Positions 51,001 through 54,000 of a DNA stretch of 64,000 nucleotides are shown here, piece by piece. Position numbers: made by a program. This DNA is from a bacterium (GTDB lineage Bacteria > Patescibacteriota > Minisyncoccia > Phycocordibacterales > Phycocordibacteraceae): the NCBI GenBank assembly GCA_037200965.1, contig JBBCGK010000001.1:96001-160000 (forward strand). The letters are read 5' to 3'. Position 1 is the first letter of the stretch; every line of letters starts with the position of its first letter.

Positions 51001-54000
51001 GCCATAGTCAACAAATTCCTGTTGCGGGATTTCGTGGGAGATTTTCTGGTGCGCAATATCGGTCTTGCGGAGGAGGATATCTATAAGCACCTGTGGTGCT
51101 AGCCGAAACGCGTGCGGAGGAGTTATCCACTTGCCGGTGAACCGTGGTTCACCTATCATGTATGCATGAGCGACTACCGCGCGCAGAAGGAGAAAGTCGT
51201 CGCTTTCTACGAGCAGCACTATCGCCTCCCGGGATACGGAGAACTTATGAAGCTCGCGCGGTTCAAGTCGAAGAACGCCGCGTATAAGCTGATCGGCAAG
51301 CTCGTCGAGGACGGCATCGTGGAGAAGGACGCGGGCGGCAAGCTCTCGCCCGGAGAGCGGCTCCGGAGTTCCGGCGTACGGCTTCTCGGCCTCATCGAAG
51401 CGGGCTTTCCGTCGCCCGCGGAAGAAGAGCTTCTCGATGTGATGGATTTCGACGAATACCTCACGCCCCGAAAAGAGTCGACCTATATCCTCAAGGTAAA
51501 GGGCGATTCCATGATCGACGCGGGGATCCGCCCGGGCGATCTGGTCGTCGTCGAGCGCCGGGCGACCTATAAGCCGGGGGAAATCGTCGTCGCCTCGATC
51601 GACGGCGAATACACGATGAAATACCTGCGGAAGAAGGGCGACGCGTACTATCTCGACCCCGCGAACGAAAAGTTCAAACCTATTTATCCGAAGGAAGCTT
51701 TGAGCATAGAGGCGGTGGTGACCGCGGTGGTGCGTAAATACTGACGGTATGGAGCGCGCTCTTGTCCGCGCCATTTTTCATGTCGACGGGGACGCGTTCT
51801 TCGCTTCCTGCGAGATCGCGAAGAATCCGGCGCTCAGGGGGAAGCCGGTTATCACGGGCAAGGAGCGCGGCATCGTCTCTTCCGCAAGCTATGAAGCCAA
51901 GCGGCTCGGCGTTACCCGCGGCGTTCCGCTCTCCCAGGTGCGGCGCATCTGCCCACAGGCGATCATTCTGTCTTCGGATTATGAGACGTATCAGATGTAC
52001 TCGAAGCGCATGTACGCGATCGCGAGACGCTATACGCCCTTGGTCGAGGAATACGGAATCGACGAATGCTTCGGCGATCTCACGGGACTCGCTACACCCC
52101 CGGAGGAAGCGGTCCGCAGGATGCGGGAGGATCTGAAGCGGGAACTCAACATGACGTTCTCGGTCGGCCTTGGTCCGACCAAAGTTCTTGCGAAGCTCGG
52201 CTCAAAGCACAAGAAGCCCGACGGCTTCACGGTCGTGACGCCGGAGAACGTACCGGAGCTTCTTTCGAAGACGCCCCTTCGGAGGGTCTGGGGTATAGGG
52301 CCGAACATCGCGGCGAAGCTCGAAGGGGAAGGGCTTCATACCGCGCTCGATCTCGCGAATATGTCCGGGGCATGGGTTCGCGCCCGCTTCGCGAAGCCCG
52401 TACTCGAGCTGTGGCAGGAACTGCGGGGCGAATCCGTCATGCCGCTTTCGTGCGGCGCGGATACGGCCCCGCATTCGATACAGGTGACGCGCACGTTCGC
52501 GCCCCGGCAGGGTGCGGAGTATCTGCGGTCCGCGCTTTCGAAGAATATCGAGAATGCGTGCTCGAAGGCGCGGAGGAAAAAGCTTATCGCGGGAGAAGTT
52601 TCCTTTTTTCTCAAGACCCAGAGCTTCCGGTATGCGGGGACGCATTTCAAGCTTGGGGAAGCGACCGCGGCACCCCAGGAAGTCATCGCCGCCGTATTCG
52701 AACGTTTCCCGGAGTTGTTCCGGGAGGGCTCCCTCTACCGGGCCACCGGCGTGACGCTCTACGGGCTCGAGAAGGCGGAAAAGCCGCAGCTTGCGCTCTT
52801 TAGCGAACCGGGGGCCATGAACCGCTTCGGCGGGCTGTATAAGAGCGTGGACGCGCTTGCGAGGCGCTTCGGCCCCGGCACCGTCTATCTCGGTTCAAGC
52901 GCGGCGGCGCTTGAAGGCAAGGGGAACCCACAGGAAGGCCTCTTTAGCGGCGCATACGGCGCGAAACGCCTGCCGGTGCCGTATCTGGGAGAAGTGGGGT
53001 AAAAGAAAAGTTGACGGGAACGACGGGAGCCGATAGTGTCGTATTAGGCCGCACACCGTGGGAGAATTCAAATGAGCGGAGCAAACAAGCGCCGGAAGGC
53101 GAATCGCAAGAAGGGTCCGGGTAGCAGGCCCTCAAGAAAAGACAAAGCCGCGAAACGCGAAAAAGCCAGACTGCGGCGACAGCTGCCTATCGATTGGGGA
53201 AGACCGCTGTATCCCTCAGTCTACAACCGATTTTATTGATGGGAGATTTTGAAAGCCGGTTCGCAACGAATGTTGCGAACCGGCTGAATGTATCCGGCGG
53301 CAAACACAACGTCCCGGCAAATGCCGGGACGTTGTGTTTGCGTTACTGACGAAGATTTATGCGGTTGCTTCGACTTTGCTCACATTGACCGCGTTCGGTC
53401 CCTTCGGGCTTTCGCCGACTTCGAAAGAGACGGTGTCTCCTTCCTCAAGCTCGGGGAAGGTGATTCCCTGAACTTCGTTGGCGTGGAAGAAGAGGTCCTT
53501 CTCCATGCCTTCTGCTTTGATAAACCCGAAGCCTTTCTCCTTGACGAGGCGGGCGATGATTCCTGTCTGCATACGATGGTGGTTTAGATGGATAGCGCAC
53601 AAGCACGCGAATAAGATATCAATTCCAGTAAGCTGAAGATCGACACCCTCTTCCGCACCCTTCACTCAGCGCCAGGTTGACTCCTCAAGTATAGCACGCT
53701 TTAGGAAACGGCGCTTTCACGGGGAAGCCAGTCAATGATCTTCTTCCGGTGGAGGTCCAGGGACCAGAGATCGCCGTGCTTAAAAAGGGAGGCGTTCGAC
53801 TCCTTGAACTTCCGCAGAAGGGCGGTGGTTGCGCGCGGAAAGCTCTCCGGCATGTCCCTATTGTATGACTTCAGGAAGTCGGCAAGAGGCACCAGCATCT
53901 CGCTTATCTTCGCCTCCTCGCCGTATTTCCTCATTGGGGCTGATAATACCATATGAGAGGGGAAAAGAAAAGCCGCCTTCCCGCACGAGACGGGAAGACT

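Follow-up and report, generated by a model that had tools for sequence, protein, structure and literature searches.

The 64,000-nucleotide (nt) stretch analyzed here, referred to as the window, covers positions 96,001 to 160,000 of contig JBBCGK010000001.1 (assembly GCA_037200965.1) and carries a lexA-like gene followed by a gene for a Y-family DNA polymerase, with an inverted repeat inside the promoter ahead of both. We read this cassette as a chromosomal SOS switch of Patescibacteria (Paceibacterota/Kaiserbacteria-like), in which a self-repressed lexA forms an operon with the polymerase gene, and assign a probability of roughly 85 % to this reading. An autoregulated repressor of the LexA type is supported by the position of the putative operator within the promoter, by its conservation, together with that of the gene order, in 77 of 80 related loci, by covariation between operator and recognition helix, and by the intact residues for self-cleavage. 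The promoter and the two genes consist of the following features, in window coordinates.

51123..51131, + strand: DnaA-box-like 9-mer TTATCCACT, with one mismatch (last base) to TTATCCACA; touches the -35 hexamer
51131..51136, + strand: -35 hexamer TTGCCG, from a consensus scan; relatives mostly carry TTGACA/T/G at the same place
51136..51153, no strand assigned: predicted LexA operator GGTGAACC-GT-GGTTCACC, scoring 28.9 bits, the sole strong site of the window; kept in 77/80 related loci and covarying with the recognition helix
51154..51159, + strand: -10 hexamer TATCAT, from a consensus scan
51166..51744, + strand: lexA, 192 amino acids (aa), with a winged helix-turn-helix (wHTH) domain at about residues 1-62, the Ala79-Gly80 bond within EAGFPSPAEEE, and an S24 domain with Ser115/Lys152
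51749..53002, + strand: Y-family translesion DNA polymerase, 417 aa, with IMS domains and the motifs DGD...FFA..E and IDEC; same-strand partner of lexA in 77/80 loci

Inspection of the window sequence places the inverted repeat GGTGAACCGTGGTTCACC at 51136-51153. A preliminary description of this DNA had called it an 18-nt palindrome about 13 nt upstream of the lexA-like gene. The repeat does lie close to the gene, at 12 nt from the ATG at 51166, but the palindrome is not perfect: symmetry holds at 16 of 18 positions, and as the central GT is not self-complementary the repeat is described as 8+2+8, or as 7-nt arms with a 4-nt spacer. The GAAC-N4-GTTC core named in the same description is present at 51139-51150. 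On the lexA strand of this region the consensus scan found one promoter-like site, TTGCCG-17-TATCAT. Because the two hexamers, at 51131-51136 and 51154-51159, are 17 nt apart, the repeat fills essentially the whole spacer between them. A conserved operator thus appears to lie over the promoter of the gene itself, which by its sequence is the arrangement of LexA autoregulation. In the list of open reading frames (ORFs) lexA starts at GTG 51112; its homologues begin at ATG 51166, as does a database protein of 192 aa that is 100 % identical. This start codon is located 6 nt past the -10 hexamer and no Shine-Dalgarno sequence is visible, so that a leaderless mRNA is the simplest reading. The distance between -10 hexamer and start codon is 6-9 nt in 66 of 73 related loci, and the lexA mRNA is probably leaderless throughout the clade as well.

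The related loci were obtained by a scan of a genome collection. They comprise 80 loci from different Patescibacteria species, with LexA proteins that are 60-81 % identical, and total 580 kb. A repeat resembling GAAC-N4-GTTC occurs just upstream of lexA in 77 of them, framed by a -35 hexamer of the TTGAC type and a -10 hexamer of the TATACT type with spacers of 17-18 nt. Across 58 loci the operator is near-invariant at 14 of its 18 positions, at 60-80 % identity between the proteins. A matrix was built from the related sites, with shuffled windows as control. The next best site of the window after the operator reached about 10 bits on this family matrix, and the shuffled windows gave a maximum of 16.4.

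Two classes of operator were distinguished among the relatives. Class A comprises 58 sites of the form GGTGAAC-N4-GTTCAC(C/T), and class B comprises 18 sites of the form (T/A)AGAACG-N2-CGTTCT(A/T), which are nearer to the classical Gram-positive box than those of class A. The recognition helix reads S-K-N37-A-x-[Y/F]-K41 in class A and [S/T]-K-[S/G]37-A-x-x-Y41 in class B, positions 37 and 41 being almost perfectly class-specific. According to the phmmer alignment (offset +4), LexA positions 37, 40 and 41 correspond to N41, E44 and E45 of E. coli LexA, which we take to be base-contacting residues in the LexA-DNA crystal structure PDB 3JSO. The covariation between helix and operator is good indirect evidence, the strongest obtained here, that the LexA encoded here reads this operator. 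Two operator classes with matched helix residues also provide a natural series in which the specificity of LexA-DNA recognition varies.

These data bear on the simplest alternative, that the repeat has no operator function and either arose by chance or belongs to the weakly HicA-like gene upstream as its RNA hairpin or terminator. The geometry of the repeat alone is not rare, as the window contains 21 repeats of the form 7+4+7 and six of the form 8+2+8, and the bare GAAC-N4-GTTC core, with two occurrences against 1.23 expected, is not enriched. It is therefore position and conservation, not geometry, that set the operator beyond chance. A chance origin does not agree with the near-invariance across the 58 loci, with the fixed placement between -35 and -10 hexamers or with the covariation with the recognition helix of the repressor, and a terminator is contradicted by the lack of a T-run after the repeat. 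Conservation effectively refutes this alternative, which retains almost no weight.

The protein itself was examined for the properties of a LexA repressor. The wHTH and the S24 Ser/Lys dyad reported for it beforehand were both recovered. Pfam detects a Peptidase_S24 domain (PF00717) in the 192-aa protein with an E-value of 1.6e-27, and the protein attains the cut-off of the lexA equivalog TIGR00498 in NCBIfam (111.1 bits vs 110.95). With phmmer, residues 22-190 align with E. coli LexA and residues 7-191 with T. maritima LexA structures; within the former alignment residues 22-66 pair with E. coli LexA 26-70 at high posterior probability. S115 and K152 correspond to E. coli S119 and K156, and A79-G80 to the cleavage site A84-G85, and all four residues are invariant among 22 homologues. 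An AlphaFold model, made from a shallow alignment of 22 sequences, gave an N-terminal domain with a predicted local distance difference test score (pLDDT) of 80-89 and the helix-helix-helix-strand-strand topology of a winged helix-turn-helix. Alignment and topology thus both point to an N-terminal wHTH of the LexA type. The C-terminal domain of the model is unusable (mean pLDDT 54). The ten best PDB fold matches of the model in Foldseek were all LexA, which is weak support, since the C-terminal half is badly modelled and the template modelling (TM) scores are about 0.3. In total 4653 homologues of the protein are detectable, and those that bear a name are labelled LexA and belong to Candidatus Paceibacterota, Kaiserbacteria and other Patescibacteria.

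S24 repressors are also common in phages, and the gene could in principle encode a CI-type repressor of a prophage or mobile element, with the palindrome as immunity operator. The protein matches lambda CI structures weakly, a large serine recombinase is encoded by an integrated element 1.8 kb downstream, and a HicA-like toxin gene is situated just upstream. However, gene, operator and polymerase partner are kept in 77 of 80 Patescibacteria genomes with varying neighbours, and the GC content of the cassette matches that of the chromosome. The N-terminal domain is a wHTH of the LexA type, which aligns to LexA structures and gives no match in Pfam to HTH_3/XRE, the type that is common in phage repressors. 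When viral contigs were scanned for the -35 hexamer plus operator, a single match was obtained; it falls in the cI/cro-like part of an unrelated phage of high GC content and was judged coincidental. We therefore regard a phage origin of the repressor as highly improbable.

The second gene of the cassette begins at ATG 51749, 4 nt after the lexA stop codon TGA at 51742-51744, in agreement with the preliminary description. Its product contains the domains IMS (PF00817), IMS_HHH (PF11798) and IMS_C (PF11799) in Pfam, and the catalytic motifs DGD..FFA..E and IDEC are kept across 74 homologues. In 77 of the 80 related loci lexA is followed on its own strand by the gene for a Y-family polymerase, which shares 46-57 % identity with that of the window, or 70 % over one short partial match. 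The gap between the two genes is a few bases in many loci, often 4-30 nt. Elsewhere other genes are inserted. A conserved ORF of about 55 aa (MKKIDTWLDIQRY...), which has no Pfam match, occurs at this place in 17 loci, and a DnaQ-like exonuclease with or without a GIY-YIG domain in 11 loci; further inserts encode a PemK toxin, a DUF5680 protein or a GIY-YIG protein. Loci with the 55-aa ORF or DnaQ-like inserts include L052, L054, L055, L057, L060, L062-L064, L070 and L072, among others. With regard to its family, the polymerase stays below every NCBIfam cut-off. The DinB model scores best (211.7 vs 371 bits), ahead of UmuC (177.3 vs 431), and its closest relatives in the PDB are entries for Pol IV. 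A conserved QLALF clamp-binding motif (QLxLF) is located at residues 347-351 and is followed by a conserved C-terminal tail of about 65 aa.

The order of an S24 protein and a Y-family polymerase raises the further possibility of a fused LexA-UmuD. Here, the fragment released at Ala79-Gly80 would act like UmuD' as an accessory subunit of the co-transcribed polymerase, which would make the cassette the equivalent of a fused lexA-umuDC; such a function would add to that of a LexA repressor. The C-terminal domain attains 109.9 bits on the UmuD subfamily model NF007621, against a cut-off of 110. Past the cleavage site it has a UmuD-type GFPSPA segment, EAGFPSPAEEE aligning to CGFPSPAADY of UmuD, and its alignment with UmuD/UmuD' structures is about as good as that with LexA, so that it appears about equally near to both. 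S24 domain and self-cleavage site are thus shared with UmuD. No separate umuD-like gene adjoins the polymerase gene, the order of the two genes is kept in the 77 loci with their often short gaps, and an internal QLxLF motif followed by a tail is the layout of UmuC. On the other hand, the protein has 192 aa and an N-terminal wHTH, whereas UmuD has about 140 aa and no DNA-binding domain, and GFPSPA-like segments occur in other S24 repressors as well. The polymerase scores higher as DinB than as UmuC, Pfam does not find in it DUF4113, the C-terminal hallmark of UmuC, and in many relatives lexA and the polymerase gene are separated by the inserts described above. This additional role is considered rather unlikely.

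For the LexA switch, the observed anatomy, conservation, gene order and covariation suggest the following course. A sigma-70-type promoter would transcribe the two genes, lexA and then polymerase, as a leaderless operon. A LexA dimer would bind GGTGAAC-N4-GTTCACC in the spacer and exclude RNA polymerase, and bound LexA would thereby repress its own gene as well as that of the polymerase. Upon DNA damage, filaments of RecA on single-stranded DNA would stimulate self-cleavage of LexA at Ala79-Gly80 by the Ser115/Lys152 dyad. Cleavage would lift repression and allow the error-prone polymerase to be made, until fresh LexA resets the switch. The earlier view of a compact, autoregulated cassette is thus upheld at the level of sequence by the operator in the promoter, its conservation and the covariation.

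Several observations weigh against this reading. Both promoter hexamers are weak and together match the consensus at 9 of 12 positions, and repeats with the geometry of the operator are frequent in the window. The margin over the TIGR00498 cut-off is only 0.15 bits, Pfam LexA_DNA_bind (PF01726) has no match in the 192-aa protein at E <= 0.01, and the C-terminal domain scores just as close to the cut-off of the UmuD model. Furthermore, a regulon is not demonstrated, since neither a second target nor recA was seen: the 64-kb window has one operator-like site and no second repair gene, and a tblastn search with an approximate E. coli RecA query found no recA in the window or in the 580 kb of related loci.

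The extent of the regulon was assessed beyond the window. The preliminary description had proposed to look for other GAAC-N4-GTTC boxes upstream of DNA-repair genes, a test for which the window, with its single site and no further repair gene, gives no room. The related loci contain just three extra sites in 580 kb; one of these heads the duplicated lexA of locus L043, which has two lexA paralogues. When metagenomes were scanned for the operator with a -10 hexamer behind it, at least 120 loci were obtained. In at least 69 of the 120 matches listed, lexA is no farther than about 520 nt downstream; in about 30 of these it is reached via a conserved ORF of about 65 aa. In at least six matches the site drives a Y-family polymerase gene, either immediately or with a DUF6504-like ORF in between. 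About 30 of the listed matches are without promoter context and look like chance, and most of the other unassigned ones have no such context either or come from contigs that are too short for classification. The sites listed are almost all located before lexA or Y-family polymerase genes and the visible regulon is therefore minimal, which suggests a very small regulon of lexA plus polymerase. Error-prone polymerases, including LexA-regulated dinB, are described in the introduction of PMC8565304 as the part of the SOS response that is most consistently LexA-regulated across phyla. Even Patescibacteria with their very reduced genomes thus appear to keep a LexA switch whose main visible job is to restrain an error-prone polymerase, in line with the idea that the SOS response has the control of translesion synthesis as its conserved core.

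Some of the operator-controlled genes are of interest in their own right. The ORF of about 65 aa (..QYLKxLxxEIxxLNxxIDxKI..Y..EARRHKxLL..) has no Pfam match and opens many lexA operons under operator control in other Patescibacteria; it was seen at positions 5952-6140 of L043 and at about 30 metagenome loci among the matches listed, e.g. L091, L096, L097 and L155. At L124, L135, L169, L175 and L190 (and L106) a TTGACA/TATACT promoter with a similar operator precedes a DUF6504-like ORF of about 80 aa and then a distant Y-family polymerase, possibly ImuB-like. Isolated operator targets are a gene read as a type I restriction-modification-like methylase (L147), a gene for a Bro-N protein according to Pfam (L197) and a gene read as integrase-like (L129). 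The methylase-like gene carries the full module of box, -35 hexamer, operator and -10 hexamer. At L119 an apparent uvrA follows lexA on the same strand.

The box of this module is the DnaA-box-like 9-mer upstream of the -35 hexamer, which in the window (TTATCCACT) is 4 nt away from the operator. Most relatives (among L001-L080 and L082-L201) carry TTATCCACA or TTATCCCCA upstream of the -35 hexamer, always on the lexA strand. When the box was counted in the 45 nt before the operator with at most one mismatch, it occurred in forward orientation in 34 of 76 genome loci and in reverse orientation in one of 76, against 0.44 % of control windows. An independent set of metagenome lexA promoters, among the matches listed, gave 41 of 68 forward and one of 68 reverse. 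The distances between box and operator cluster at 5-8, 13-17 and 24-26 nt, a spacing of roughly one helical turn. The DnaA-like box is absent from the DUF6504-like promoters of L124, L135, L169, L175 and L190 (and L106).

Two explanations of the box were rejected. A general promoter element is not supported by its distribution in the 580 kb, where lexA-type promoters with an operator account for 33 of 51 occurrences of TATCC[A/C]CA (31 of them at lexA proper, the other two at duplicated copies of the module in L043 and L051) and the rest are fewer than the approximately 35 expected by chance, a rough estimate that assumes equal base frequencies. A third half-site for LexA was dismissed because the box is unchanged across both LexA specificity classes. 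A different conserved protein should therefore read the box and probably provides a second input besides that of LexA, DnaA being the obvious candidate. The general DnaA-box consensus is TT[A/T]TNCACA (PMC6015884). By its sequence TTATCCACA, of which relatives carry exact or near-exact copies, corresponds to the canonical DnaA box; DnaA as the protein bound here is put forward as a hypothesis. When dnaA and oriC were sought in the fetched related loci, the sole match was a DnaA-C-like domain in a 377-aa protein of L066, which is encoded beside a cytosine methylase and was rejected as a candidate DnaA.

A parallel exists in E. coli, where uvrB, recN and dinJ are under joint control of DnaA and LexA (PMC6015884). 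Common to both is an SOS promoter in which a DnaA box, here a putative one, is placed beside or over the LexA box. In the E. coli promoters several boxes overlap LexA sites and repress, whereas the promoter described here has a single putative box upstream of the lexA -35 hexamer, in fixed orientation and helical phase. It is conceivable, although we hold it to be less probable than not by a clear distance, that the promoter forms a two-input switch. LexA would act in the spacer and the phased DnaA box would tune repressor and polymerase, coupling mutagenic bypass to the replication status, possibly with the C-terminal domain of cleaved LexA as a UmuD'-like partner. The organisms concerned have very few regulators, and if the proposal is true, a DnaA-type box at the lexA promoter would link replication initiation to the control of mutagenesis in an uncultivated lineage.

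The cassette was further compared with known systems. The Cheo box of Gram-positive bacteria has the consensus CGAACRNRYGTTYC. The system described here resembles Gram-positive LexA (DinR) in the GAAC-N4-GTTC core, in the dimeric repressor composed of wHTH and S24 domains and in the predicted autoregulation through a site that overlaps the promoter. The core is invariant in the 58 class-A sites. However, the C/G flanks of the Cheo box (CGAAC...GTTCG) are replaced by T and A (TGAAC...GTTCA) with a conserved GGT...ACC extension, and the Cheo-type assignment made earlier can thus be retained for the core but not for the flanks. Further differences from the Gram-positive system are that the operator exactly fills the spacer, that the mRNA is apparently leaderless and that lexA is co-transcribed with a polymerase gene. 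E. coli umuDC (DNA polymerase V) likewise has an S24 self-cleaving protein encoded before a Y-family polymerase, a GFPSPA-like segment and control by LexA; in the cassette of the window, by contrast, the S24 protein carries a DNA-binding domain and would itself be the repressor, and the polymerase resembles DinB models more closely, with no DUF4113 detected in it. Mutagenesis cassettes linked to lexA are known in the form of lexA beside imuA-imuB-dnaE2. The physical linkage of an error-prone polymerase to lexA is common to both, but here a single Y-family polymerase is present without imuA or dnaE2, and the linkage is nearly universal in the clade (77/80).

The box had also been thought to be informative about the LexA regulon of this lineage. 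It is less so than supposed, because an SOS network of Patescibacteria was published in 2017 (Sanchez-Osuna, Barbe, Erill, Environ Microbiol, PMID 28618189, as cited in PMC8565304), and the supplement of PMC8565304 lists the LexA proteins of one Parcubacteria and one Collierbacteria genome as experimentally validated in vitro. As far as these sources describe it, the published network belongs to the superphylum treated here and comes from an analysis of the same type. A later paper of the same group (PMC7739468) cites the 2017 work on Patescibacteria among the cases of direct-repeat LexA motifs, whereas the site described here is not a direct repeat. Features that may be new are the leaderless layout with the operator as promoter spacer, the two operator classes with their helix changes and the phased DnaA-type box.

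Downstream of the polymerase gene two further features were noted.

53072..53239, + strand: possible third gene, a very basic ORF of 55 aa with a GGGAG ribosome-binding site; its membership in the operon is uncertain
53254..53285 (14-bp stem) and 53300..53341 (19-bp stem), no strand assigned: two strong hairpins, -72.7 kcal/mol, z = -10.9

The basic ORF has no Pfam match and no homologue in the 80 related loci. No shuffled sequence folds as stably as the hairpins, which are situated between the operon and a convergent cold-shock gene and are probably two-way terminators that end the operon. A terminator scan missed them because both are without a T-run.

The window contains rpoA, dnaK, dnaJ, tyrS, ftsW and a murG-type gene and is therefore chromosomal; genes for an aspartyl/lysyl-type tRNA synthetase and scpA/B are also present. 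Just upstream of the lexA promoter, at 50449-51102, are two small genes that may form a toxin-antitoxin pair, the second of which encodes 86 aa and is weakly HicA-like (E 0.0015, below the Pfam cut-off). A probable integrated element occupies about 54775-64000 and encodes a large serine recombinase (54775-56550), a DUF5659 protein, an AbiEii toxin, an EcoRI-like adenine methylase and a GmrSD/HNH nuclease; its GC content drops beyond 58 kb. A low-GC island (35-48 % vs about 60 %) extends from about 38000 to 46000 and contains glycosyltransferase genes, a polysaccharide flippase-like gene and a gene for a PMT_2 protein, and Fic-domain genes flank it at 36587-37774 and 45940-46581. Finally, an ORF at 22660-23574 among cell-wall genes has HTH_38 and integrase-core (rve) domains, from which we presume it to encode an IS30-like transposase.

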